From a virus (lineage: Duplodnaviria; Caudoviricetes): DNA of 64,000 nt. The first letter of the stretch is position 1. Every line of letters begins with the position of its first letter. Positions 6,151-35,602 of the stretch are shown in pieces. The notes beneath the pieces were generated by a model, which was not told where the DNA came from, searched no databases, and was given only the letters and a program-made list of their open reading frames with translations. The stretch is from IMG/VR virus record IMGVR_UViG_3300050156_000143, positions 32,001 to 96,000 of that record. One strand, given 5' to 3'. The position numbers were made by a program, and so were the translations under genes.

Positions 6151-6316
6151 GAGCTATCACGTTATTGTTCAAACTGACGAAACAACAGGGGATTTATTGA
6201 TTCCCCTGCCAGAGGGACTACTCAGTGAAGTGGGTTGGAAATATGAAGACCAAATATCGTTTGGCATTGACGCAAGTGGCAGATTGGTGTTGACGAAAAT
6301 TGACTCCACAAATTGA
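6137..6316 (+). CDS. AbrB/SpoVT-like small protein missed by ORF track (59 aa)
   Basis: Manual translation includes GDLLIPLPEGLLSEVGWKYEDQISF. Confidence 0.6.
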   Translation: MLHSKSYHVIVQTDETTGDLLIPLPEGLLSEVGWKYEDQISFGIDASGRLVLTKIDSTN

Positions 6317-6343
6317 AAAAAGCGGCCTAGGCCGCTTTTTTCA
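6314..6343. terminator. Bidirectional intrinsic terminator, perfect palindrome
   Basis: tgaaaaaagcggcctaggccgcttttttca between convergent genes. Confidence 0.9.
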
Positions 6344-13990: not shown

Positions 13991-14431
13991 TTATGGTGCA
14001 GTCAAAATGTCTCTAACTTGCATCAACAGTTTCCCCAACATGTTCGCACCTGATCCGTTTCCACCGTCACCCCAGTATTTGTCATTGGTGGTGTGCTCGC
14101 ACAATATACTGTCTCCGGTCGAAATCAATAATAACCTGAGCTTCTCATGTTGCGTGAATTTTGCAAGAAGCACTTTTAATATAACGTCGTTTTTGACCTG
14201 TTCCCAATCTTCTCTAAGTTGAACATCGGGATCGCGCCCATAAGTCGCTGCGAGTTTTGGAGTACCAGCTTTCCTTATTTTTTCTTGATACGTGGGGTCG
14301 ATGAACTTTTGCGATTGATAATAATGCTCCGAAGTTGGCCACAACTTGTTATCCAATCTGATCGGATACCTGACAAAATTAGAAAATGCACCGTAAGTCG
14401 AAGTGGTGGAATAAAAGTTGATCGTTTTCAT
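13991..14431 (-). CDS. NADAR (YbiA-like) family protein
   Basis: FSNF, PTSEHYYQSQKF, KFTQH, DKYWGDGGNGSGANMLGKLLMQVR. Confidence 0.93.
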   Translation of the reverse strand: MKTINFYSTTSTYGAFSNFVRYPIRLDNKLWPTSEHYYQSQKFIDPTYQEKIRKAGTPKLAATYGRDPDVQLREDWEQVKNDVILKVLLAKFTQHEKLRLLLISTGDSILCEHTTNDKYWGDGGNGSGANMLGKLLMQVRDILTAP

Positions 14432-14718
14432 GTAAACAATAGTGTAAACGCCGTTCTTAGGTCAGGGTCTGGGATATACACGTAGAACACGTTAGTGGGT
14501 AACCAGCTAGTTACCGATGAAAATCGATATGGTATACCCACTGTTTGATGCCATATGGCTTGTTCTGGGTATTGCCCAGGGCGTTCATCATGTAAAACCA
14601 ATACACATTGAGGTTTGGGGACAATAAGCGGGTTCAACTTGGAGAAGTCAAAGTTTCCATCCGATGACATCCCTATCCGTTCTGAAACCTCAACCAAGTC
14701 TTGAACTTCAATCGGCAT
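14428..14718 (-). CDS. Family A-like small protein
   Basis: Ends VYIPDPDLRTAFTLLFT; start ATG lies inside the TAT-GCC of the upstream family B tail. Confidence 0.65.
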   Translation of the reverse strand: MPIEVQDLVEVSERIGMSSDGNFDFSKLNPLIVPKPQCVLVLHDERPGQYPEQAIWHQTVGIPYRFSSVTSWLPTNVFYVYIPDPDLRTAFTLLFT

Positions 14719-14998
14719 AATAGTGTGAAATCTCATCTTCAAACAGCCAAAAACCCAGAGAATTTGCAATCTGAACATCAACTCGATATTGCGGGGCGGG
14801 ATATGAGACCGCAACCAAACGAACATATGGTTGTTTGCATAGCCACTCAAATTCTTTTCTGCCAGTTTTGAAATACGGATTATGTTTTTGTTGCAGATGT
14901 CTCAGGTTTCCAGGCCCGTGTACAACAACCTTATCCCCAACCTGAAATCCCCGTAGTGGGCCGATTAACTCATCATGTTCAATTATTGTGTTCCTCAT
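14708..14998 (-). CDS. Family B SH3/KOW-like paralog (usual start position reads ATA at 14986)
   Basis: DELIGPLRGFQVGDKV...WLFEDEISHYYAD. Confidence 0.75.
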   Translation of the reverse strand: MRNTIIEHDELIGPLRGFQVGDKVVVHGPGNLRHLQQKHNPYFKTGRKEFEWLCKQPYVRLVAVSYPAPQYRVDVQIANSLGFWLFEDEISHYYAD

Positions 14999-15272
14999 AT
15001 TGGTGGACGATTTCATCATCGTGAACCCATACTGTTTCAAAATAGTTCGGGTAAGTTTCGATTTCGAGCAGATACGCTGGTGAATTAACTGGGTCATAAT
15101 CCACTAGAACTATTTTTCCCTTGGAACCAGACATGGCTATTTCTGACTCGGACAATGCCCACGAGTTCAATGATGCGCGACGCTGTGCAGTATCCGATTG
15201 ATTCACTTTGAATACAATTTTGTCGCCAATTTCAAACCCACGAAGTAACGATGCCAAGGAAAGTTCGTCCAT
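14979..15272 (-). CDS. Family B SH3/KOW-like paralog
   Basis: MDELSLASLLRGFEIGDKI...WVHDDEIVHQYEEHNN. Confidence 0.85.
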   Translation of the reverse strand: MDELSLASLLRGFEIGDKIVFKVNQSDTAQRRASLNSWALSESEIAMSGSKGKIVLVDYDPVNSPAYLLEIETYPNYFETVWVHDDEIVHQYEEHNN

Positions 15273-15273
15273 A

Positions 15274-15558
15274 CTAATTCTCAAAGTGGAAATTAAGGTC
15301 TGACCCACTGAACCACGATGAATGGTTAAACTTGCTATTGGGTTCATCACAGTGCAAGGACTCGACGAACCCAAAAAACTCGGGATCAACATCTACCAAA
15401 TAACTATCATCCGCATAGTCGCAAACGATGACCACACCCGTCATCCCCGATTTTGCATATGCACGTAATTCATCATCGGACGCGGTGACAATCACTCGGT
15501 CTCCAATTTCATACGGCACATCGGATAACAACAGGTTGGCCACATCGGTTTCAATCAT
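15274..15558 (-). CDS. Family B SH3/KOW-like paralog
   Basis: MIETDVANLLLSDVPYEIGDRV...WFSGSDLNFHFEN. Confidence 0.85.
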   Translation of the reverse strand: MIETDVANLLLSDVPYEIGDRVIVTASDDELRAYAKSGMTGVVIVCDYADDSYLVDVDPEFFGFVESLHCDEPNSKFNHSSWFSGSDLNFHFEN

Positions 15559-15589
15559 TTTGTTCCTCATAGTAGTGAGTGAGTTCATC
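15518..15589. repeat. Gene-junction repeat, 69/72 identical to 18983-19054
   Basis: Manual alignment, three mismatches. Confidence 0.9.
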
Positions 15590-15832
15590 GGAATATGCCC
15601 ATACAGTTGGCAAATTCGTGCCAAGACTGATTTTGTGACACGGCTCGTCCACATCGACGGCCAAAATTATCGCTGGGGTCATCCCAAGCCCGTTCTGATT
15701 TCTAATATGCACATATAAGAAGACGATATCCTCACCAGCGTCATTTTTCTTTCGCATTTTCCCCGAATGCAATGTGACTTTATCCCCAACCTGAAATCCC
15801 CGTAGAAGGCCGATTATTTCATCTTGTTCCAT
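15551..15832 (-). CDS. Family B SH3/KOW-like paralog
   Basis: MEQDEIIGLLRGFQVGDKV...WAYSDELTHYYEEQND. Confidence 0.85.
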   Translation of the reverse strand: MEQDEIIGLLRGFQVGDKVTLHSGKMRKKNDAGEDIVFLYVHIRNQNGLGMTPAIILAVDVDEPCHKISLGTNLPTVWAYSDELTHYYEEQND

Positions 15833-16040
15833 CTGATGTGTACTCGTAGTAAGAAGTTAGAAACTCATGGACTGTCAAGTCTCCAGAACTGTACGTCACG
15901 GTTTTGACAATGTATCGCCCAATTTTGCGCCGCATGCACCAACGTAGCCACAGAAAGTGGTCTCCGACCTTGATCGGCAACCATGCAAAGTGCGCTGTGT
16001 ATTCGGTGATGGGCTTATCAATGATGTTCACTGGTAGCAC
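15819..16040 (-). CDS. Hypothetical protein
   Basis: GGAG SD then GTG; FAWLPIKVGDHFLWLRW. Confidence 0.65.
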   Translation of the reverse strand: MLPVNIIDKPITEYTAHFAWLPIKVGDHFLWLRWCMRRKIGRYIVKTVTYSSGDLTVHEFLTSYYEYTSDGTR

Positions 16041-16744
16041 AGCAGTTCTCCTATCAGTTGTTTGACTTCCACAACGTCTTCTGCACGTCTGGAAAACATG
16101 ACCGCCCACTTGGAGGGATCAACGTAATCGTACACCATTTTCACATGTTCTTGCCCAAGTTGATCTAAAAATCGAATGCCATCGTTGTAATTATACAACA
16201 ACCAGGGACTCAATTTTCCAGACACGATGGCTGAACACAACACACTCGCGTGTAGGAAAAACACTCCAGTCATGTCAACGTCATGTTCTTCGCACAAATC
16301 ACACAATGTTTCCACACTTCGTTGCACTGCATCCACGTGATTCTCATTGCGTAAAAATGTAACTAAAAATTGCGTGTAGGTTGAATCCAAGTGCCACAAA
16401 TCTAGTTTCAGATTTTCCTTGAACAAATGATCTAGGTATTTTGTTCTATTGATGACATAAGTGTTTGTGCAAAATTCCCCAAATTTTAGAAATCCATTGA
16501 ACAACTTTGATTCAGCAAATTGCTCATATGTGGTGACTTTCCCAAAAGATTGCTTGAAGTATTTTGAATATGCGTCGAACGCGATCAAACAAGGCTTCGT
16601 TGCTTTATTTTCATGCCGTTGTTTTTTGGTGCAGGTGTGCCTACTCGCGGCTGATTCTCGTTGGAATTCTTTTTTGCAATATTGACAGACAAACTTACAT
16701 GCCAGAGGAGGCTTGATGGTCGGTGATATCGTCCTGCGTGACAT
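16028..16744 (-). CDS. N-terminal zinc-finger protein
   Basis: FVCQYCKKEF..RHTC; start uncertain. Confidence 0.7.
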   Translation of the reverse strand: MSRRTISPTIKPPLACKFVCQYCKKEFQRESAASRHTCTKKQRHENKATKPCLIAFDAYSKYFKQSFGKVTTYEQFAESKLFNGFLKFGEFCTNTYVINRTKYLDHLFKENLKLDLWHLDSTYTQFLVTFLRNENHVDAVQRSVETLCDLCEEHDVDMTGVFFLHASVLCSAIVSGKLSPWLLYNYNDGIRFLDQLGQEHVKMVYDYVDPSKWAVMFSRRAEDVVEVKQLIGELLCYQ

Positions 16745-17222
16745 AAGTGCTGAGTTCATATAAATCCGACAATTTCATATTGGGGCAAACTTTTGCCAAA
16801 TAGTGACATTTATTTTGGGTGGTCACGTAGTCAGCAATGTGTGTGGCAGACGTTTCTCCAATTTTGTTGAAATATTCTTTGGCATCTTTGTGTTTAATTT
16901 TTTCCCTAAACTTGGTGTATTTTGTTGACAACTGTGGAATCCACTGATGCTTCAACATTGTTCCCAAACTGGCTGAACACAGTAACTGCCATTGTAAGGT
17001 CGGGTGACGACCAATTGTCGAACTAAACATCAAGTCGTTGATGTGATTGTATCCTCGAACCTGATACTCCTGTGTGTCCTGATTGCCTGTGACTGAACTA
17101 AGCCAGATCATCATAGTGTATGGGGCAAATTTACGTTGTTCTTCTATGGGCAATGATGCCAGGTATCCATACGATTTTGAATCGATGGCGGTCAATACTG
17201 GGAATAAATTGAAGTCACTCAT
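16695..17222 (-). CDS. Possible clamp-loader small subunit (gp62-like)
   Basis: KFAPYTMMIWLSS, HPTLQWQLL, HQWI pattern recalled from jumbo-phage gp62-like proteins. Confidence 0.4.
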   Translation of the reverse strand: MSDFNLFPVLTAIDSKSYGYLASLPIEEQRKFAPYTMMIWLSSVTGNQDTQEYQVRGYNHINDLMFSSTIGRHPTLQWQLLCSASLGTMLKHQWIPQLSTKYTKFREKIKHKDAKEYFNKIGETSATHIADYVTTQNKCHYLAKVCPNMKLSDLYELSTYVTQDDITDHQASSGM

Positions 17223-17427
17223 TAGTCGTTTTGTCGGGAAAGTGGAATTTAAGTTCTTCATCAAAGTACATATAACAGATGGCACCAACCATGACGTAAT
17301 TTGCCAGCCATGTTTTATGCACTATTTTTCCGACAAAGCCCGCATTGGTTCTCACCGTGTCTCCCACCTCGAATTCCGCGTCTGAAAGGAGCATTTGAGC
17401 CACATCGTCTTCATCATGTTCAATCAT
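17215..17427 (-). CDS. Family B SH3/KOW-like paralog (minimal)
   Basis: MIEHDEDDVAQMLLSDAEFEVGDTV..GFVGKIV..YFDEELKFHF. Confidence 0.85.
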   Translation of the reverse strand: MIEHDEDDVAQMLLSDAEFEVGDTVRTNAGFVGKIVHKTWLANYVMVGAICYMYFDEELKFHFPDKTTNE

Positions 17428-17692
17428 TTTGATCCTCATAGTAATGGGAAATTTCGTCAGAATATACCCAAACATTGGGCGAACTCGGGCTGAAGTTGAT
17501 TTTGTAACACGGTTCTTCCAAATCGACTGCCAAAATTCGCGCATGAACTAAACGTTGTCTAATGCGTAACCGGTTGAAGAGGTCATCATCCACTACGTTA
17601 TCAGTTTTTCGCATTTTCCCCGAATGCAATGTGACATTATCACCAATTTCAAACCCACGTAGAAGGCCGATTATTTCATCGTGTTCAGTCAT
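17420..17692 (-). CDS. Family B SH3/KOW-like paralog
   Basis: MTEHDEIIGLLRGFEIGDNV...WVYSDEISHYYEDQND. Confidence 0.85.
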   Translation of the reverse strand: MTEHDEIIGLLRGFEIGDNVTLHSGKMRKTDNVVDDDLFNRLRIRQRLVHARILAVDLEEPCYKINFSPSSPNVWVYSDEISHYYEDQND

Positions 17693-17957
17693 TTCGATCC
17701 TCATAGTAATGGGCGATTTCGTCTTCCCAAAGCCAAAACTGTTCACCTGTGTAGTCCACTGAAACGACCCCAATACCATATTGTGGGCATGGATACATGA
17801 TGTCTGTCAATTCCACATATGGTTGCTGAACTAGCCAATCGAATATACGTTGGTAATCAGGTTCTCTCAGTTTCGGAACGCTTGGTTCACGTACAACAAT
17901 TTTGTCCCCCACGCAAAAGCCCCGTAGAAGGCCGATTATTTCATCGTGTTCAATCAC
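17685..17957 (-). CDS. Family B SH3/KOW-like paralog (GTG start)
   Basis: IEHDEIIGLLRGFCVGDKI...WLWEDEIAHYYEDRND. Confidence 0.85.
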   Translation of the reverse strand: MIEHDEIIGLLRGFCVGDKIVVREPSVPKLREPDYQRIFDWLVQQPYVELTDIMYPCPQYGIGVVSVDYTGEQFWLWEDEIAHYYEDRND

Positions 17958-18243
17958 GTTGATCTCCAAAATGGTGAGTAATTTCATGTGGATATACCCA
18001 CCACCAGCCAATGTCTTGTGTCCGACATGCAATCGATGGGTATGGGTGCTCTGGTGGCACATCAAGGACATCGGTTATGGTTCCCGTGCGCCCCTCGAAC
18101 CGTCTTAGGCGTTGTTGTCTAATAATTTGTCGAGATTCGACGGCGGGTTCAAATGCGAGTCTCCGTGAGTAATCCAGATGAAATACGACTTCATCCCCAG
18201 CGCAAAAGCCCCTCAATATGCCGATCAACTCATCTTGGTTCAT
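17950..18243 (-). CDS. Family B SH3/KOW-like paralog
   Basis: MNQDELIGILRGFCAGDEV...WVYPHEITHHFGDQRD. Confidence 0.85.
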   Translation of the reverse strand: MNQDELIGILRGFCAGDEVVFHLDYSRRLAFEPAVESRQIIRQQRLRRFEGRTGTITDVLDVPPEHPYPSIACRTQDIGWWWVYPHEITHHFGDQRD

Positions 18244-18536
18244 GATAGGGTAGAAGATTTAACGAACAAATTTAGATCGGCAGCGGTAGCGAATTCCAAT
18301 GAAAGTTCATGGACAAAAACACAACAGTTGCCATCCCTTAAATCTTGAAACACTTCAACCCGCATGCAACTAACCGTGAAAGGAACGCTAAAGACACATG
18401 CGTGCATGGTGTTATCAATGTACCCACGTATTTGCGCCAAATCGTATTGGAATGAATTTCCATCCACAAAAAATCGCGGAATTAATTCAAACCGATCTAG
18501 CAATTCATCCGCAGTGAAAGTAATCGTGCGTGTCAT
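18240..18536 (-). CDS. Family A-like small protein
   Basis: Ends LEFATAADLNLFVKSSTLS. Confidence 0.6.
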   Translation of the reverse strand: MTRTITFTADELLDRFELIPRFFVDGNSFQYDLAQIRGYIDNTMHACVFSVPFTVSCMRVEVFQDLRDGNCCVFVHELSLEFATAADLNLFVKSSTLS

Positions 18537-18745
18537 TCCGGGAAATAGTGTTTACAATAATTGATATGAGTGACAATCACGATGTCGGCCCACGCTGGCG
18601 AGTCCAAAATAATTGACACGTTTTCCCCATCAGATTCGACAACGGTTCCTGCATATTTTTCACCACAGTAGTCATACATGATGGGATCACCTTCGTCAAA
18701 TGGTGTGCCATCGATCAGTAAACTTGCTAACTTATTTTCATTCAT
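18533..18745 (-). CDS. Family B SH3/KOW-like paralog
   Basis: MNENKLASLLIDGTPFDEGDPI..GTVV..KHYFPE. Confidence 0.8.
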   Translation of the reverse strand: MNENKLASLLIDGTPFDEGDPIMYDYCGEKYAGTVVESDGENVSIILDSPAWADIVIVTHINYCKHYFPE

Positions 18746-19023
18746 GATGCACCTTGATCAAAAAAGTATTCCAAATCGTTGCGTGTATACCATAAACACA
18801 ACTTCTGATAAGTTAGTTTGGAATCAAATACGATCTGAATTTCCATGCCTCTTACGATAGCAGCTACCGTTCCGACTAATCCATTCCCATCAAACTGATC
18901 GTCTGCATTCTTGCCAATCGCCATCATTGCCACTGTATCTGGGTCAGCTTTGACCCTTATCCGGTCTCCGATCTCGAACTGTACATCGGATAACAACAGG
19001 TTGGCTAAATCGGTTTCAGTCAT
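18742..19023 (-). CDS. Family B SH3/KOW-like paralog
   Basis: MTETDLANLLLSDVQFEIGDRI...WYTRNDLEYFF. Confidence 0.85.
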   Translation of the reverse strand: MTETDLANLLLSDVQFEIGDRIRVKADPDTVAMMAIGKNADDQFDGNGLVGTVAAIVRGMEIQIVFDSKLTYQKLCLWYTRNDLEYFFDQGAS

Positions 19024-19054
19024 TTTGTTCCTCATAGTAGTGAGTGAGTTCATC
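18983..19054. repeat. Gene-junction repeat, copy of 15518-15589
   Basis: Manual alignment. Confidence 0.9.
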
Positions 19055-19288
19055 TTCAAATGCCCACATTGTTCTAGTCGTAAATCTGACCTGAATTGGC
19101 GCCGATCCGGGAGGTTCCGTGTATATTCTAATCACCACGCAACCCCGTCCATCTAGACTACTGGCTAATTCAGCGTCGTGAATCCCAAATACTCGTCGAT
19201 CTGTTCTCCTGGAAGCATCGAAGTGATAAATTACTTCATCACCAACTTCAAACCCACGTAGTAACGATGCCAAAGAAAGTTCGTCCAT
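19016..19288 (-). CDS. Family B SH3/KOW-like paralog
   Basis: MDELSLASLLRGFEVGDEV...WAFEDELTHYYEEQND. Confidence 0.85.
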   Translation of the reverse strand: MDELSLASLLRGFEVGDEVIYHFDASRRTDRRVFGIHDAELASSLDGRGCVVIRIYTEPPGSAPIQVRFTTRTMWAFEDELTHYYEEQND

Positions 19289-19296
19289 GATGCACC

Positions 19297-19644
19297 TCAC
19301 AGTGAAAACTGTTGTCTAAATGATGATAGCCCATTATCCGAATCAAACTGTAAGACCAATTCTATAATTCGCACAGTTATTTTTGGTTTAATGACATAGC
19401 GGTCACCCTCTGGGGTCACCACTATCCCTGGCACACTAGATTGCTCTATCTCAACTGTATGTTTAACCACGCTCCCGCCGTATTCCGACAATTTAATCGA
19501 CACTGCATCTAGGTAAAATTTGTCGATGTGTGTTCGCATGTTCTCAAGCCCAGACATGTATGTGGTAAACGATGTTGGCGGGCCAAATATTTTAAACAAT
19601 GCCAGACGACGCAATATCATCGTCGATTTTTGGTCAGTTTTCAT
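19297..19644 (-). CDS. Family A-like small protein
   Basis: Ends LQFDSDNGLSSFRQQFSL; start inside upstream TAT-GAA. Confidence 0.6.
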   Translation of the reverse strand: MKTDQKSTMILRRLALFKIFGPPTSFTTYMSGLENMRTHIDKFYLDAVSIKLSEYGGSVVKHTVEIEQSSVPGIVVTPEGDRYVIKPKITVRIIELVLQFDSDNGLSSFRQQFSL

Positions 19645-19873
19645 AATAGTGAGTAATTTCATCGGAAAATACCCACTCACGCAATGTATTGTGCTCAATC
19701 CGGTATCGTGGCTCACTGTCATCACAATCAACGATCCTCCAATAGACACCCGTTAGTGGTAGTGCGTATCGCCACGATATATCGTGGTATTCCCGCATTT
19801 CACCTGGCCACACCGTCACCGTGTCCCCTACGCAAAACCCCCGTAGTAGACCGATCATTTCATCTTGTTCCAC
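19634..19873 (-). CDS. Family B SH3/KOW-like paralog
   Basis: MEQDEMIGLLRGFCVGDTV...WVFSDEITHYYEN. Confidence 0.85.
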   Translation of the reverse strand: MEQDEMIGLLRGFCVGDTVTVWPGEMREYHDISWRYALPLTGVYWRIVDCDDSEPRYRIEHNTLREWVFSDEITHYYEN

Positions 19874-19887
19874 ATCGTTTCCTCGTG

Positions 19888-20178
19888 TTAACTGAATAGT
19901 AGTTCAAACGCAGTTCTCATGGTCGTATCCGCAATAAACACGTAACACCCCATGATGTTCTCATCGGAATGAATAAAAGTCTTTGACCATAACGAAATGC
20001 AGCCCAAATCTATCAAGTATTGTTGAGCCAATAACAGCTTTTCCCATTCGTGTAGTGAATAGCAAAGTTTTATTGTTTGATCCAAGGGCACATCAACGGG
20101 TGAATCCAAAATGAAGTCATCATAAAACCACGGTGGTGCCCACGATGGATGAGGATAAACTTCAACAGTTTTGGTCAC
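19888..20178 (-). CDS. Family A-like small protein
   Basis: Ends VFIADTTMRTAFELLFS, like the 14428 gene. Confidence 0.65.
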   Translation of the reverse strand: MTKTVEVYPHPSWAPPWFYDDFILDSPVDVPLDQTIKLCYSLHEWEKLLLAQQYLIDLGCISLWSKTFIHSDENIMGCYVFIADTTMRTAFELLFS

Positions 20179-20315
20179 ATGCCGTACCTTAAACTTTGGG
20201 ATTTGGTGGCAAATGAGTGAGAGGTTGATTTATTGCCACTTACCATGAGATGATGCGTCGTGCAAGATGCTGGTAATATCAATACTATCAAAATGGCCGC
20301 AAGAATCGGGTTCAA
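20175..20315 (-). CDS. Possible 46-aa lipoprotein-like peptide
   Basis: TTG start overlapping previous stop; MNPILAAILIVLILPASC, lipobox imperfect. Confidence 0.35.
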   Translation of the reverse strand: MNPILAAILIVLILPASCTTHHLMVSGNKSTSHSFATKSQSLRYGM

Positions 20316-21046
20316 GGTGCCTCCATCGTGTTTGCCATCATTCCCGCTCGCATGGCGTCGATCAACGTATTATACGGGGCGGCGTTCTCATATTGAGTTC
20401 CAACACCAATCTGAGGAAACCACGCATTGCGAACGTTTGCCATAAAAGAGTTCACCACCACAAACTTCACCCATTCCTTCAACACTTCATCGCCATCGGC
20501 TGTGGCAATCGCATCCGCAATACTGACCAGCACATTGGTCTCCCACTGGCGAAGTAAGCATTTCAAATAGTCTACCACAGGATCACGTGAATCACGTTGC
20601 CGAATCGACCCAGAGGCACTGCTTAGTTGCGCAATCCCGACAGTATATTCACCAACAGTGAACTCATGATGTTCAACAATGTGATCCCAAACTTGTTGAT
20701 GAATAAGCGCAAAATGTAACCTACCTCGACCCATCTCGGTATTCACAAATAGTTTTCTGTCATGATCCATTTGAAATAAGATGGAAAAATCCATTGACTC
20801 ATTTTGTTCAACCAAGTTTTCACGTGCGTAATTTAGCACCAATGCCGCACCCGACCCCCAGATATTTTCCACCCCGCCGTAACCATCATATTCACCATAA
20901 CACGGTGTTTTTATGGGGATATAATGAGACTCAGGGTAACACAAATCGGTGGTAAATGTGTTTTGCACCATCGCCACAATGACCACAGATTGGCCCTGAA
21001 TGATTGGCAAATGTGAAATAGCGCATGTTTGATTCCAGTACCCCAC
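20312..21046 (-). CDS. Hypothetical protein
   Basis: 244-aa ORF; CAISHLPI, GEYDGYG. Confidence 0.75.
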   Translation of the reverse strand: MGYWNQTCAISHLPIIQGQSVVIVAMVQNTFTTDLCYPESHYIPIKTPCYGEYDGYGGVENIWGSGAALVLNYARENLVEQNESMDFSILFQMDHDRKLFVNTEMGRGRLHFALIHQQVWDHIVEHHEFTVGEYTVGIAQLSSASGSIRQRDSRDPVVDYLKCLLRQWETNVLVSIADAIATADGDEVLKEWVKFVVVNSFMANVRNAWFPQIGVGTQYENAAPYNTLIDAMRAGMMANTMEAP

Positions 21047-21058
21047 AATACCCCCGTG

Positions 21059-21559
21059 TTAAAAACACTGACTAAAATCGACTATTTCACTGTTGCGTGA
21101 CACGTCTTGAACAAAATACACACATTTTGGTTTATGTGAATTCTCGATCGGCACACACAGGTATTGGCCACTTTTCAACTTTGGGCTGCACCAGTCTACA
21201 TCATGATACACGTCGAGTACCTCAATTTCTGGAAAAGATGGTCTAAACCCGGATAATGGATTCAACTCAAATGCCTTGAAACCACGATCATTGATGCTGG
21301 TAAGAGGCAATGCTTCGAGGTCTCCAACTTCAGGGTCTCCAATCAGTATTTGCCAGTTTAGGGGCATTTTGATCACATGAGTACCAATTCTTAGCACCAA
21401 AGCTGGCGCCTTGAACGTCTCCAATAGGATCAACTGTGAAAAAAAGTAATCCACATCTTTGGGGTTACTATTATCCAAAATTGCATATCTAAGGTCGCCC
21501 ACATCATTCGGAACAAAATCTAGACACATGGTCTGATTTTCAATCGTTAGTATATTCAC
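21059..21559 (-). CDS. Hypothetical protein following UvsW
   Basis: 166-aa ORF coupled to uvsW. Confidence 0.8.
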   Translation of the reverse strand: MNILTIENQTMCLDFVPNDVGDLRYAILDNSNPKDVDYFFSQLILLETFKAPALVLRIGTHVIKMPLNWQILIGDPEVGDLEALPLTSINDRGFKAFELNPLSGFRPSFPEIEVLDVYHDVDWCSPKLKSGQYLCVPIENSHKPKCVYFVQDVSRNSEIVDFSQCF

Positions 21560-23028
21560 TTATAATTCACTTTCTCGATATCAAACGGATACTGAGCATT
21601 TTTGTAAAATTCCTTACGTTTGGTAAGGTGGCGTTTAGCAAATTTGCAACTTGAGGTGATATCGTAAATTTGGACAAAGTTCTTGTCTTCTGTTCTACGT
21701 ATTCCTCGGCCTATACTCTGGATAACTCTTACGAACGATTTGCCAGGTTCAATCAAAACCACATTGAAAATTCTCGGGGCGTTGATACCAACCGCTGCTA
21801 CCCCATAAGTCGCTATCGTAATCTGGTTATTGCTGGTGGCGATGGATTCATATTCGTCTTTTCTATCTGCCTGTTTCATCTTGCCACTTACAAAAGTGAC
21901 TTCAGGCTTGTTGTACAAGCTGGTCTCCGATGAGAGCATGATTTGTAACATTTTGCCAGCTTCGATTCTATCCACCAGCACCAGTGTGTTTCCACTGTTT
22001 TTTATGTCCAAAATCTGTTTAGCAATGACCTCCATTCTGGACACATCTTCTACCAAAAATTTCAACTCGGCTTGGTAATTGCCGAATTCTCGCTGGTCTT
22101 GTAATTGCAGTATCTTTACATGGCAATCGGACAATACCTTTTTATCTTGTAGTTGCTTTGCAGTGAGTTTGTTTGTGACCGGGCCAATAGATGTTATCAA
22201 AGATGTGTAATCTATTTTCTCCGGCGGAATCGTCCCCGTTAGCCCCAATCTGATGGGTATCTTTGCCATACAACCACAGAGCATGCTTCTGAGTTTATTG
22301 GCCTTTGCGCTGTGGGTTTCATCCACTATGACACATATTACCCCGTCTAGGAACTCACTATTATCAACTAGCGCGGTTCCCTTGATAATAATGTCAATAC
22401 TCTGCCAGGTGCAAATGACGTGTGTGTGGTTTGCCTCTTTTCTATCCCCGTAGTAAACCCCGACATCGAGTCCAAGGTTTATATAATCGGCCTCGGTCTG
22501 TTCTACTAAACTCTTGTTTGGAACTATGACAATCGATCTGCCATATTGTTGAACCATGAGGCTCACCGCCGCAGTGATCAGGGTTTTGCCAGCAGATGTT
22601 GCCAGTTCTTGAATGCACTGGCGATTGGTTAGAAAGTCGTTTACGGCGGTAACTTGATAGTCTCTGAGCATCACGGGCTTGCCAGCCGCTGGGTGTTTCT
22701 CTGGCCAGACAATGTGTGCAAAAGAATCTTCTCGTATGGGATCAAAGTGCATGTCATGTGAGTAATCACGCAAATCGTCCAATTCAAGTTGGTAATTCCG
22801 TTTCTCCAAAATTGGGATAATTTCAGACAACAAATTGATATAGGTTGTCCCGTTAGCGTTGAAAAACGCTGTTTTGCCGTTCCAGCGTCCAAGTCTCACG
22901 CTGGGCATAAACCTGGCGCTAGGAATTTCATATTCAAATTGTCTTTGCAACAGTGATTTAGTTTGTGGGTCTAATCCTGTAATACGGCAATTTACTTCAT
23001 CTAGTATTTGTATGGTGCAGTTGGGCAT
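21556..23028 (-). CDS. uvsW: UvsW-like SF2 DNA helicase
   Basis: LRDYQ, ATSAGKT, VDETH, GLTGT, QSIGRGIR. Confidence 0.92.
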   Translation of the reverse strand: MPNCTIQILDEVNCRITGLDPQTKSLLQRQFEYEIPSARFMPSVRLGRWNGKTAFFNANGTTYINLLSEIIPILEKRNYQLELDDLRDYSHDMHFDPIREDSFAHIVWPEKHPAAGKPVMLRDYQVTAVNDFLTNRQCIQELATSAGKTLITAAVSLMVQQYGRSIVIVPNKSLVEQTEADYINLGLDVGVYYGDRKEANHTHVICTWQSIDIIIKGTALVDNSEFLDGVICVIVDETHSAKANKLRSMLCGCMAKIPIRLGLTGTIPPEKIDYTSLITSIGPVTNKLTAKQLQDKKVLSDCHVKILQLQDQREFGNYQAELKFLVEDVSRMEVIAKQILDIKNSGNTLVLVDRIEAGKMLQIMLSSETSLYNKPEVTFVSGKMKQADRKDEYESIATSNNQITIATYGVAAVGINAPRIFNVVLIEPGKSFVRVIQSIGRGIRRTEDKNFVQIYDITSSCKFAKRHLTKRKEFYKNAQYPFDIEKVNYK

Positions 23029-23132
23029 GTAGTGAGGAGTTAGCGCTATTATATCATCCGATGATGTATTTAAGCGGTAAGATGCGAGTATACCAGAATA
23101 CTGGTAGAATACTGGTATACAAACTGGGGGAA

Positions 23133-23453
23133 CTATGTCAAATATGTTAGTTGAAAGTGGGTGAGTTCTTCAGCGGAATTAAAATTGATTATCGTGTGAG
23201 TCAATGTGTGCCATGTGATACTTGGGATGTCTGGAAACCGGACTAGAAATCTTTCCACGTTTTGTGGCACAGTGAGTTCACAATGGTAACCCAAAACGGA
23301 AGAAAGGCTATTCGCCACCTTTTCCAACAGTGTTGGCAACATATCCACATAAACATCACTACTAACGCATCTGGTAATCCCAAGTAGGAATGCGTTGGGC
23401 AGCAAGGGATATATGGCAGAGAATGGCACTATGATCGCACAGCTTTCATCCAT
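23133..23453 (-). CDS. Family A-like small protein
   Basis: Ends INFNSAEELTHFQLTYLT; start inside upstream TAT-GGA. Confidence 0.65.
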   Translation of the reverse strand: MDESCAIIVPFSAIYPLLPNAFLLGITRCVSSDVYVDMLPTLLEKVANSLSSVLGYHCELTVPQNVERFLVRFPDIPSITWHTLTHTIINFNSAEELTHFQLTYLT

Positions 23454-23724
23454 AGTAGTGAGCGATTTCATCAGAAAATACCCAGTCATATACACGATCG
23501 TTCAAACTATCTCCACCATTCCAATACACTCTATATGCTGGCTCGGTGGTATCAATCATGTCAATGATCCAATAAACGTGTTCTGCATCATTGGAGTCGC
23601 ATAGGATGTTGCCTGACCATCCAGCATCTGCCCGTTGATTCCTAATAGGGTACAACGTAACTCTAACTTTGTCTCCAACGCAAAAGCCCCGTAGAAGGCT
23701 GATTATTTCATCTTGATCAGACAT
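23446..23724 (-). CDS. Family B SH3/KOW-like paralog
   Basis: MSDQDEIISLLRGFCVGDKV...WVFSDEIAHYYG. Confidence 0.85.
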   Translation of the reverse strand: MSDQDEIISLLRGFCVGDKVRVTLYPIRNQRADAGWSGNILCDSNDAEHVYWIIDMIDTTEPAYRVYWNGGDSLNDRVYDWVFSDEIAHYYG

Positions 23725-23986
23725 CTTGATCTCCATAGTGGTATGCAAGGCGGGCAGATGGAATCCACATTTTAAATGGGGCAGAGTTAAGATTAGTATG
23801 TTGGTTGGAAAATGATATTCTGGCCCATTTTGTGGACTCACGATCGCTAACAACGCCTATCACTGTGCCAATATCACCGACATTGTACAAAAATTCATCC
23901 TGATGAACCGGGGAGCTTACGATGATCACTTTATCACCAGGCTGAAAGTCGCCCCGTAACAAATTTGCCAAAACAATTTCATCCAT
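23717..23986 (-). CDS. Family B SH3/KOW-like paralog
   Basis: MDEIVLANLLRGDFQPGDKV..GDIGTVI..AYHYGDQDV. Confidence 0.85.
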   Translation of the reverse strand: MDEIVLANLLRGDFQPGDKVIIVSSPVHQDEFLYNVGDIGTVIGVVSDRESTKWARISFSNQHTNLNSAPFKMWIPSARLAYHYGDQDV

Positions 23987-23987
23987 A

Positions 23988-24290
23988 TTATTCCCCATAA
24001 TAATAGACCAATTCTTCAGAACATACTGGCATCATGCGGGGTATTGAGCATAGATCGTCTTGCCGTCTAACACACCAAGGTGGCTCTATCCCATCCTCAT
24101 ACTTTTCGATCACCACGCATATTGTCCCTGGTGGATAATCGTCCATCTCGGTTTGCGATCTTTTGTCAGTGAACCTCGGGAGTGATATTTTTCGTTTTGA
24201 TACATCATTTGACAATATTTTCACCAAGTCACCTGGCTGAAAATCACCCAGCAAAAGTGTGGCCACCCGTTCTTCACAAATTTCGTTCAT
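23988..24290 (-). CDS. Family B SH3/KOW-like paralog
   Basis: EERVATLLLGDFQPGDLV...SEELVYYYGE. Confidence 0.8.
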   Translation of the reverse strand: MNEICEERVATLLLGDFQPGDLVKILSNDVSKRKISLPRFTDKRSQTEMDDYPPGTICVVIEKYEDGIEPPWCVRRQDDLCSIPRMMPVCSEELVYYYGE

Positions 24291-24295
24291 GATGA

Positions 24296-24658
24296 TTAAA
24301 AACTGTTGTGAATGGTGTCAAAAGTTTCATTCAATTTGCTTCCCATTTGGGCCGTTCGAGCTGTTTGGGTGGCGACCGTTTTTGTAATTTCCTCTAACAA
24401 TATGACAATATCGGTTAGATCGTCCGCCACTTTTGATTCACAAATTCGTTTGATTGTCGCTTCTAACATATATGTTACGTTGCGTAATTTGGTGGATTGA
24501 TCTTCACCCTTGGCCACAGTCATCAATTCCACACAAAAATCTGTGTGTTCACCATAGTCAATCGATGTGACTACTTCCTCCATATACAACAATTCCTCAA
24601 TTTGCTCAGGCGTTAAAGTCCCATGCAATTTAAAATATTCGGCATTGGTTAATGGCAT
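24296..24658 (-). CDS. Hypothetical helical protein
   Basis: 120-aa ORF. Confidence 0.65.
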   Translation of the reverse strand: MPLTNAEYFKLHGTLTPEQIEELLYMEEVVTSIDYGEHTDFCVELMTVAKGEDQSTKLRNVTYMLEATIKRICESKVADDLTDIVILLEEITKTVATQTARTAQMGSKLNETFDTIHNSF

Positions 24659-25380
24659 TTTGTATTCCTTATTTGATTCAATGCTCGGCGAATGGCACTT
24701 TGATCTTTTACCTCAATCCACCCGTCTTGTTCATATTCCTGCACTTTTGCTTGTGTTGTTTTTCTGCACATATCTGCGTTCACCATATATGCGGGTTTTG
24801 TAGCAATACGTTGGTCAAAAGTCTGTGTCCATTCTGTTAAAGACGGTGCTTGCCGCTTTGGAAACTTTCTGACACAAGATTGGTCGTAATTTGTGAACCA
24901 CACCATTTCATCGGGATGGTTAGTTTTAGAGGCATATCTGTAATTGCCAGTAGACACCAAAACTTCTGCTTCACCTTGGGGCACACTTTGAATTACACCG
25001 TTCACATCGATTATTTTCACTTTGCCCTTGAACCGTGCAGAAGTCGATTCGGCCACTAACAGCCGTGCTCGCTCATACTGTCGAGAGAATTTTGCAGTGC
25101 CTGTGGCTCCACGTAGTAGAACAAATGCACACGCCATTTTGGAACTAGCTTGACCCGACGTGATTTTTGTCAGGATGTAATGACACACAAAATGCTCACG
25201 AGGGGTCAAATCTACCAAATTGTCTTTGGTGTTGTCTCCACCCATTGAGCGGGGGATTATGTGATGCCTCTCGCATTTTCCTGGAGAAGGTCTGTTTTTA
25301 GCATTAGCAATGATCTTCAAGTACCAGTCCAGCAATTTGCCAGGGGCAAACATGGTCAATGCAGTAGTGGATGGATTCAT
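24649..25380 (-). mobile_element. Free-standing HNH homing endonuclease
   Basis: ERHHIIPRSMGGDNTKDNLVDLTPREHFVCH. Confidence 0.85.
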
Positions 25381-25395
25381 GACGCAAAGTATAAC

Positions 25396-25425
25396 GCAAA
25401 ACTGCGACCTAGGTCGCAGTTTTGC
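25396..25425. terminator. Terminator, perfect 30-bp palindrome
   Basis: gcaaaactgcgacctaggtcgcagttttgc. Confidence 0.85.
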
Positions 25426-35157: not shown

Positions 35158-35577
35158 ATGAAAAAACATATCCTCACATTTGCTCTCACGATGCTAGCCA
35201 CGTTGAGTCACGCTAACCCGTATTCTTGGCCTGTTGTGAAAGTTATCGATGGCGACACCGTTCAACTCAAAGTAACCTTGTTACCTGAACTTGGGGATCA
35301 CTTGAGTTTACGAATATATGGAATTGACACGCCGGAAAAGGGGTTTCGCGCAAAATGTGACAAAGAAGCTGCGCTAGGAAAACGTGCTACGGAATACACC
35401 ACCAATGCGGTTGCACGTGCCAACAAACGTGAAATCATCGTGAGGGAATGGGACAAATACGGCGGGAGAATTTTGGGAGATTTGGTACTGGACGGGAAAC
35501 AGTTAAGAGACATGATTATTGCCGCTGGACTAGCCCGTGAATACTACGGTGAAAAGAAAAGTGACTGGTGCAAATGA
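35158..35577 (+). CDS. Thermonuclease (SNase-like) with signal peptide
   Basis: VIDGDTV, RIYGIDTPE, DKYGGRILG, GLAREY; extended -10 TGCTATAAT 7 nt upstream. Confidence 0.92.
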   Translation: MKKHILTFALTMLATLSHANPYSWPVVKVIDGDTVQLKVTLLPELGDHLSLRIYGIDTPEKGFRAKCDKEAALGKRATEYTTNAVARANKREIIVREWDKYGGRILGDLVLDGKQLRDMIIAAGLAREYYGEKKSDWCK

Positions 35578-35602
35578 AAAAAGCGGCCTAGGCCGCTTTT
35601 TT
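35575..35602. terminator. Bidirectional terminator identical to 6314-6341
   Basis: tgaaaaaagcggcctaggccgctttttt. Confidence 0.9.

Follow-up and report, generated by a model that had tools for sequence, protein, structure and literature searches.

The DNA analysed here (hereafter the window) is a stretch of 64,000 nucleotides (nt) from a phage, bases 32001–96000 of the 277,516-bp virus record IMGVR_UViG_3300050156_000143, which bears direct terminal repeats. Between positions 14708 and 24290, its minus strand carries 15 co-oriented small genes (m01–m15) with constant ends and variable cores. We consider it fairly likely that these genes represent a lineage-specific family, turned over by recombination, of small acidic cytoplasmic SH3-like barrels, which would form a distant branch of SH3_15 (the Mind bomb SH3 repeat, PF18346) and whose gene-to-gene junction would act as a cassette module. 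Computational analysis revealed the homology of the genes, their fold, the anatomy of the junction, an indel of one unit, a cassette swap, mosaicism, and the restriction of the family to one lineage, as described below.

Family membership and predicted fold

The stop codons of all 15 genes lay exactly where the first-pass annotation of the window had placed them. With adjusted starts, the products were 70–100 amino acids (aa) long; five starts were moved 12 nt downstream to an ATG with a ribosome-binding site [m03 (94 aa, 15274..15558), m05 (70 aa, 17215..17427), m06 (90 aa, 17420..17692), m10 (93 aa, 18742..19023), and m13 (92 aa, 23446..23724); all coordinates of family members are on the minus strand]. 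A profile built from the 15 members scored each of them at E 1e-11 to 1e-30 against the six-frame open reading frames (ORFs) of the genome. These scores show homology rather than chance, and the 15 genes are true paralogs. The N-terminal motif proposed in the annotation held: none of the 15 members deviated at G-D or at the Leu of LL, and a Phe preceded G-D in at least 90%. Its C-terminal motif was present in the strict form (W..DE[IL].HYY) in 9 of the 15 members, while a looser [DE]L.[HYF][HYF][YF] tail was found in 14. The alignment also bore out that the constant ends enclose cores that vary in both length and sequence.

A family of 15 had been described. The window does hold 15 members, but the total for the genome is far larger: 39 ORFs were obtained with the iterated profile, and 41 domain matches by genome search. 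The copies are clustered at genome positions 0.4–5 kb, 19 kb, 26.7 kb, 46.7–56.3 kb (the array of the window), 122 kb, 180.8–188.3 kb, and 253.7–255.7 kb, and together occupy ca. 10.2 kb, or 3.7% of the genome. Fold-defining residues were kept across the 39 copies, and the N-terminal 12–15 residues were constant. At one locus (L010, genome 122231–122716), two members are fused into a single two-domain frame of 162 codons, in which the intervening stop reads Tyr and the first member is without its start. The same pair is present as two intact genes of 79 and 83 aa in a kin contig with 92% identity (L025:2806–3297). This fusion shows either gene decay or a route to tandem-repeat proteins.

The family profile found no match in Sinorhizobium phage Phosso (469 kb), Agrobacterium phage Atu_ph07 (490 kb), and Serratia phage BF (357 kb), in a complete 518-kb IMG/VR genome and four smaller related contigs, or in the helicase-relative loci L013–L019 and five IMG/VR records searched whole. 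The first-pass annotation had suggested counting copies across jumbo phages; this count gave 41 in the phage's own genome and 0 in four jumbo phages of the wider clade. With 41 matches in its own genome and none in the relatives searched, the family is a lineage-specific expansion. When 50,697 phage records were searched by tblastn with m04 and the most typical member, no match reached significance; the best one (Gordonia minor tail proteins, E 0.04) was judged to be due to chance. Megablast of the array region against the same records also gave nothing significant and no close relative. Scans of the members against Pfam and PHROGs yielded nothing significant, with weak hints of SH3_15, SH3_12, SH3_13, KOW, and YajC.

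The small SH3/KOW-like β-barrel put forward in the first-pass annotation was upheld by structure prediction and profile comparison. AlphaFold2 models of m04 (93 aa, 15551..15832) and m10, which are only 14% identical to each other, had the same topology, with predicted local distance difference test scores of 78.5 and 81.6, respectively. Both models begin with an N-terminal helix, after which come strand 1 (F.VGD.V), a variable insert (helical in m04 as well as in m10), strands 2–4, a short helix, and strand 5; thus, the predicted fold is an N-terminal helix plus a five-strand SH3-like barrel. Foldseek returned weak matches (E at least 0.02), all of them SH3-like barrels (Tudor, PWWP, NdhO, PetP, and the NusG C-terminal domain). 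When 48,161 chains were compared using VIA-align, independently of Foldseek, the Mib1 REP domain ranked first (4tse_B, Z 7.3, root-mean-square deviation 2.7 over 67 residues), but PWWP, Tudor, and KOW domains trailed it by less than 1 Z unit; MIB2 ranked first in a structure search of the ESM Atlas.

Profile searches pointed to the same repeat. Alignment of the 39 members with 13 SH3_15 units by hhalign gave 96.3% probability (E 1.8e-9, 56 columns). Only 48 of 1.84 billion representative proteins were found at E 0.001 or better by a profile search; the short proteins fetched from these 48 were the phage's own or those of near kin, and the rest were mostly long multi-repeat proteins. Seven of the eight other proteins scanned against Pfam matched SH3_15. 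In a sequence-profile search of the PDB, HERC2 and the SPT5 KOW domains were both found at 1.5e-4. The Pfam SH3_15 model matched 1 of the 39 members at E <0.01 (m10, the best member, 18.5 bits, E 0.0025), and KOW (PF00467) matched two of the 39 at E 7.5e-4 or weaker, all <0.01. From the profile searches, hhalign, and the fold ranking, we conclude that the barrel is distantly homologous to the Mind bomb SH3 repeat and that it lies outside the Pfam family by the threshold of the latter. Each family member in the window encodes a single domain and is closed by a stop of its own, unlike SH3_15 repeats, which stand in tandem in one polypeptide. Two additions, an N-terminal helix and an HYY tail, are particular to the phage family. 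The members are acidic: the median isoelectric point (pI) was 4.9, pI was below 6 in 31 of the 39, and most window members had a net charge of −4 to −13. RNA binding, one of the functions proposed for the array, is disfavoured because of this acidity. An Sm/Hfq-like assignment was rejected for the same reason and because the fold searches returned Mib, Tudor, PWWP, and KOW domains.

Gene junctions, turnover, and selection

In the DNA, the constant ends of neighbouring members lie side by side: the tail of the first gene (H-Y-Y-E-E-Q-N-D-stop) overlaps the head of the second (M-I-E-H-D-E-I-I-G-L-L-R-G-F), the two being read in different frames. The junction taken as reference (17896..18004, minus strand) comprises the C-terminal strand and tail of m08 (97 aa, 17950..18243), a Shine–Dalgarno (SD) sequence, an 8-nt start/stop overlap, and the N-terminal helix and first strand of m07 (90 aa, 17685..17957, GTG start). 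At 6 of the 10 within-family junctions, an SD (GAGGA or GGAG) lies 5–6 nt before the start and the start/stop overlap is 8 nt; the SD letters sit inside the Y-E-E or Y-G-D tail codons of the upstream gene. For instance, the ATG start of m03 is preceded by an SD and overlaps the stop of m04 by 8 nt. m12 (79 aa, 19634..19873) has a GTG start with the SD GAGGA, and m01 (96 aa, 14708..14998) has only one in-frame ATG, for which no SD was found. All 15 window copies retain open frames, starts, and coupling signals. The direct-repeat families returned by a repeat finder for this region (D1–D4) are the junctions themselves, whose further copies lie at approximately 14716–15036, 15550–15853, 17419–17477, 17631–17742, 19015–19073, 19642–19894, and 23451–23742.

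Three things hold the ends constant: the constraint of the fold, the signals for translational coupling, and sequence exchange between copies. F.VGD.V in strand 1 and W...L in the last strand are also the core motifs of SH3_15. Exchange is indicated because the members are mosaics, in which the N-end, core, and C-end of one member have different nearest paralogs. For m01, the nearest paralog is m04 at the N-end (88% nucleotide identity), m07 in the core, and m13 at the C-end. The N-ends of m02 (97 aa, 14979..15272) and m11 (90 aa, 19016..19288) are 90% identical at the nucleotide level, with the same codon used for 12 of 16 identical residues, while the cores of the two score no better than shuffled sequence. 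Among paralogs, synonymous divergence (dS) was 0.43–1.29 in the N-ends and ranged from 0.67 to saturation in the cores. Dual coding over 8–20 nt accounts for only part of the low dS of the N-ends and of the mosaicism.

We compared the array with close relatives at 87–93% nucleotide identity, represented by short metagenome contigs and by contigs from four other runs. Contrary to an array fixed among relatives, the comparison revealed a unit indel, a cassette swap, and divergence localised in the cores. L001, a 5.1-kb contig from another leaf-litter metagenome, is 91% identical to window 17899–22902 and colinear with it. It differs mainly in the cores of m12, m11, and m10, where in-frame indels of 4, 4, and >16 residues occur; its junctions and flanking genes are 90–100% identical. 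In both L001 and L002, m08 runs directly into m06, and exactly one 265-bp unit, m07, is missing; both breakpoints of this deletion fall within 87 nt that match both junctions. The same 265-bp skip was found in one of the four independent runs (X6). At the slot of m04, all four runs carry a different N-end and an m12-like core behind small ORF F, in agreement with contig L003 and protein P0014. In other variants among the runs, the core of m10 is replaced (across kin it is replaced or expanded) and m02 and m11 carry in-frame indels. In a second cluster (genome 180.8–182.3 kb), comparison with kin contig L024 showed short divergent patches inside the cores of three members, with in-frame indels. 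Additionally, an inverted m03-like gene lies between the m04 slot and m02 in two runs (X4 and X6; joints 15167/19054) and in L003 (a 1018-bp Joint Genome Institute contig). It comes from two assemblers but from short contigs only, and is provisionally taken to be either a genuine inversion of one gene or a mis-join caused by the repeats. A 538-bp skip, with a flank of 25 nt, is likewise provisional.

We then evaluated selection in seven pooled ortholog pairs. The ratio of nonsynonymous to synonymous divergence (dN/dS) was 0.15 over the N-terminal 20 codons, against 0.40 for the core and 0.41 for the C-terminal 14 codons, with dS about equal in the three parts (0.32, 0.32, and 0.28, respectively). 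Flanking genes had dN/dS of 0.02–0.22 (0.02–0.06 for the helicase, orf166, and small ORF B). No positive selection was found, dN/dS being below 1 throughout. The dS of m10–m12 was raised compared with their neighbours (0.46–0.68), which suggests that these genes may have been exchanged with diverged alleles. No reverse transcriptase (RVT_1) was detected in the genome, whereas control genomes were positive, and substitutions among kin were ordinary transitions in all directions without adenine bias. The description of the cores as hypervariable was thus overstated. Because nothing exceeds a dN/dS of 1, no reverse transcriptase is present, and the mutation spectrum is ordinary, the variation of the cores is better read as fast recombination-assisted divergence under weak constraint, through relaxed or diversifying drift, and not as targeted mutagenesis.

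Genomic setting and neighbouring elements

The product of the UvsW-type helicase gene (window 21556–23028) is 48–53% identical to its counterparts in Phosso, Atu_ph07, and Serratia phage BF, which places the phage, judging from this protein, in the T4 superfamily as a jumbo member. DNA nearly identical to that of the phage was confined to leaf-litter metagenome runs, apart from small shares in freshwater runs. Scans of viral and metagenome sequences with the UvsW helicase yielded relatives at 52–59% identity only.

The span 14708–24290 is not the single unbroken array first described. It consists of five blocks in slots between conserved backbone genes (the UvsW helicase gene, orf166, orf186, and orf243), with six unique small ORFs interleaved. 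In the direction of transcription, from high to low coordinates, the gene order is HNH endonuclease, orf120, m15, m14, m13, small ORF D, UvsW, orf166, orf244, small ORF B, m12, small ORF E, m11, m10, m09, small ORF C, m08, m07, m06, m05, orf186, orf243, small ORF F, m04, m03, m02, m01, small ORF A, and a NADAR-domain gene. Among members not yet located, m09 (70 aa, 18533..18745) is a minimal member, m14 has 89 aa (23717..23986), and m15 has 100 aa (23988..24290). The barrel of m05 is shortened, and m06 is the closest paralog of m04 (58% aa identity). The backbone genes (a RecA-like gene, orf150, UvsW, orf166, orf186, and orf243) are kept in phages whose helicase is 53–59% identical, whereas the slot between orf166 and orf186 holds 0.6–1.7 kb of unrelated genes in those relatives and 3.8 kb, mostly array, here. 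Therefore, the arrays are located between core genes, in slots that are hyperplastic.

All six small ORFs interleaved with the array (14428–14718, 15819–16109, 18240–18536, 19297–19660, 19888–20178, and 23133–23450) are on the minus strand. Searches with jackhmmer found no paralog of any of them in the genome, and they had no Pfam or PHROG match; their grouping as loose members of a second family was unsupported at E 1e-3. Two of them (at 14428 and 19888) end in a similar R-T-A-F-x-L-L-F tail, although jackhmmer did not connect the two. The HNH endonuclease gene adjoining the array (window 24649–25380, minus strand) has relatives at 28–37% identity in L014, L015, L017, and L019. In kin phages, these lie elsewhere and on the opposite strand, being located between UvsW and orf166 in three contigs. 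This difference in place and strand suggests that the HNH gene may be a mobile homing-type gene.

Promoter-like and terminator-like sites were not enriched in the array region (22 against 29.8 expected and 14 against 12.1 expected, respectively). The sequence TATAAATA occurs once in the window, which matches chance expectation. In the 105-nt gap upstream of UvsW (23028–23133, minus strand), a TTGACA box, a hairpin of ca. 33 nt overall with 9-bp arms (GTATACCAG/CTGGTATAC), and a TAAATA box follow in a row; they might be early and late promoters in a stack, together with a hairpin that resembles an operator. A terminator-like hairpin with a 13-bp stem, followed by a T-rich run, lies just upstream of the start of the HNH gene (25396–25425, minus strand). 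It differs from a perfect 26-nt palindrome (A6-GCGGCC-TA-GGCCGC-T6), of which the genome has ten copies at up to 3 mismatches. Two of these are in the window at 6316–6341 and 35577–35602 (genome 38316 and 67577), and the others are at genome 1342, 28289, 164990, 183134, 186741, 219550, 245639, and 250943. One copy follows directly on the family cluster at genome 0.5–1.3 kb, and two flank the clusters at 180–188 kb. The palindrome looks like a bidirectional intrinsic terminator.

Competing explanations, known systems, and significance

We take the architecture of the junction as established; it would serve as a combined module for coupling and recombination, and the family would evolve through unequal crossing-over, gene conversion, and divergence of the cores. 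In the explanation that we favour, the SD encoded in the tail and the 8-nt overlap would couple translation regardless of the order of the cassettes, and the junction would supply ca. 90–130 nt of homology for unequal crossing-over and gene conversion. Such exchanges would add, delete, swap, and homogenise cassettes; the recombination mechanism itself is one that we infer. From the first loop to the fourth strand, the barrel would diverge fast through substitutions and in-frame indels under weak purifying selection. The products would be protein-binding modules, whose variable loops would recognise changing host targets such as defence or takeover factors. The likeliest function of the products is to bind proteins that are variable targets in the host: the loops that vary correspond to those holding the ligand in SH3-like domains, peptides are bound by the closest homologs (as by SH3_15 repeats in eukaryotic E3 ligases), the products are acidic and cytoplasmic, and sister phages carry different copies.

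Several points weigh against this explanation. The fold scores are middling (Foldseek E at least 0.02, VIA-align Z below 8), and no member reaches the SH3_15 gathering score of 24 bits. The conservation of the ends is partly ordinary fold constraint, because their motifs are those of the SH3_15 core. With dN/dS below 1 everywhere, diversifying selection is not demonstrated, and the decayed or fused copy at genome 122231 also fits dispensable genes. In addition, the phage is known from metagenomes alone, the kin evidence stands on short metagenome contigs, in which repeats can be mis-joined by assemblers, and the flanks that support the inversion and the 538-bp skip are short.

The fused copy and the weak constraint would also be expected if the array were neutral birth-and-death filler, that is, a duplication-prone repeat with mostly dispensable, drifting copies and no functional repertoire. 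We regard this as unlikely, although it deserves attention: the dN/dS of 0.4 in the cores reflects far weaker constraint than in the flanking genes, one member is decayed or fused relative to kin, kin tolerate the loss of a copy, and the same slots hold unrelated small genes in relatives. Yet dN/dS is still well below 1, 15/15 window copies keep their frames, starts, and coupling signals, fold-defining residues are retained in 39 copies, and the 3.7% of the packaged genome spent on the family argues for some benefit. If the copies are functional, the junction might have evolved as a plug-and-play cassette and the family might be a recombining repertoire of substrate adaptors, a counterpart of the recognition modules that Mib repeats provide in E3 ligases. 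The N-terminal helix and the C-terminal tail, on one face of the barrel, would then dock the members onto a common hub (a protease, chaperone, or modification enzyme belonging to a host or phage machine), the exchangeable cores would choose the targets, and shuffling would renew the repertoire in the phage population. This extension is improbable in our estimation.

Alternatively, the members might be internal proteins that are packaged in the capsid and injected. The internal proteins of T4 (IPI–IPIII) share a common targeting sequence and differ between phages. If the N-terminal tag were a capsid-targeting sequence, the variable bodies could be anti-restriction effectors, and the members are indeed small, acidic, polymorphic, and multi-copy, with 12–15 constant N-terminal residues, in a phage of the T4 superfamily. 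On the other hand, no [LI]-x-E site for the prohead protease is conserved after the tag (within the first 25 residues, such a triplet occurs in only 8 of the 39 members, at scattered positions), the N-terminal helix is modelled with fair confidence as part of the domain, and the genes, which are translationally coupled to one another, have replication and recombination genes as neighbours. Packaging is therefore a poor prospect, and the odds are just as low that the members bind nucleic acids or the transcription machinery, whether as KOW, Tudor, or Sm-like regulators or as mimics of the NusG C-terminal domain that hijack the ribosome or Rho. The SPT5 KOW domains in the PDB search, the two members with a Pfam KOW match, and the NusG, RfaH, and PWWP–single-stranded DNA structures among the fold matches speak for such binders, but the proteins are acidic, unlike typical nucleic-acid binders, and it is the Mib repeat, a peptide binder, to which the best sequence and fold links lead; protein mimicry of the NusG C-terminal domain is still conceivable. 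Variation written into the cores by a dedicated system, for example a diversity-generating retroelement, is effectively refuted. Only the pattern of constant ends and variable cores suggests it, while no reverse transcriptase was found in the genome, of which ca. 23% is missing according to the CheckV estimate, differences among kin are ordinary transitions, and ortholog dS is equal in ends and cores.

The earlier statement that no described system matches the array was too strong, because the SH3_15 relative exists and both expansions of small domains (PMC7824862) and repeat-mediated shuffling in T4-type phages (PMC2839356, PMC4122927) have been described. The Mind bomb SH3 repeat (as in Mib1 REP and HERC2) has the barrel core in common with the family, namely F.VGD.VRV in strand 1, a central G..G.V, and a terminal W....L. 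The phage proteins differ from it in standing alone at 70–100 aa, whereas Mib-type repeats are in tandem inside large proteins, and in adding an acidic N-terminal helix, the HYY tail, and large variable inserts after strand 1.

In the hyperplastic regions of T4-type phages, promoter-early stem-loop (PeSL) cassettes mediate modular shuffling (PMC2839356, PMC4122927). As here, short repeats flank small non-essential ORFs in slots between core genes of T4-superfamily phages, and the insertions, deletions, and replacements between close relatives, such as the 265-bp indel and the swap at the m04 slot, are bounded by repeats. However, the repeat described here consists of coding gene ends, an SD, and an overlap, while PeSL cassettes are intergenic promoter–terminator elements; no enrichment of σ70 promoters or stem-loop terminators was seen in the array region; and the shuffled units are paralogs of one family rather than unrelated ORFans. 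Lineage-specific expansions of small domains are known from jumbo phages, for example ca. 35 zinc-ribbon copies in Bacillus phage G (PMC7824862). There too, one small domain has been amplified to tens of copies in one lineage; the fold is SH3-like here, and turnover and polymorphism among kin are documented here. Host-range gene "accordions" of poxviruses are transient amplifications of one gene that are driven by recombination under host pressure. In them, as presumably here, a tandem gene family of a large DNA virus grows and shrinks through recombination, but the phage family is old and highly diverged. What is new is the protein family itself, which is without a Pfam or PHROG match, and its size of 41 copies, as well as the use of the genes' own coding ends, instead of an intergenic cassette, as the module for shuffling and coupling, documented by natural variants.

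Many anti-defence and host-takeover factors have been found among small uncharacterised genes in the accessory regions of phages. The family offers ca. 40 natural variants on one scaffold, in which constant and variable parts are clear and gain, loss, and swap have been seen in nature. If it is true that the proteins are binders, the scaffold could serve engineering. One module of 100 nt holds the protein ends, the ribosome-binding site, the start/stop overlap, and the homology for recombination, which eases the reshuffling of the family. The family is a tractable test set for the role of expanded SH3-like families in phages.

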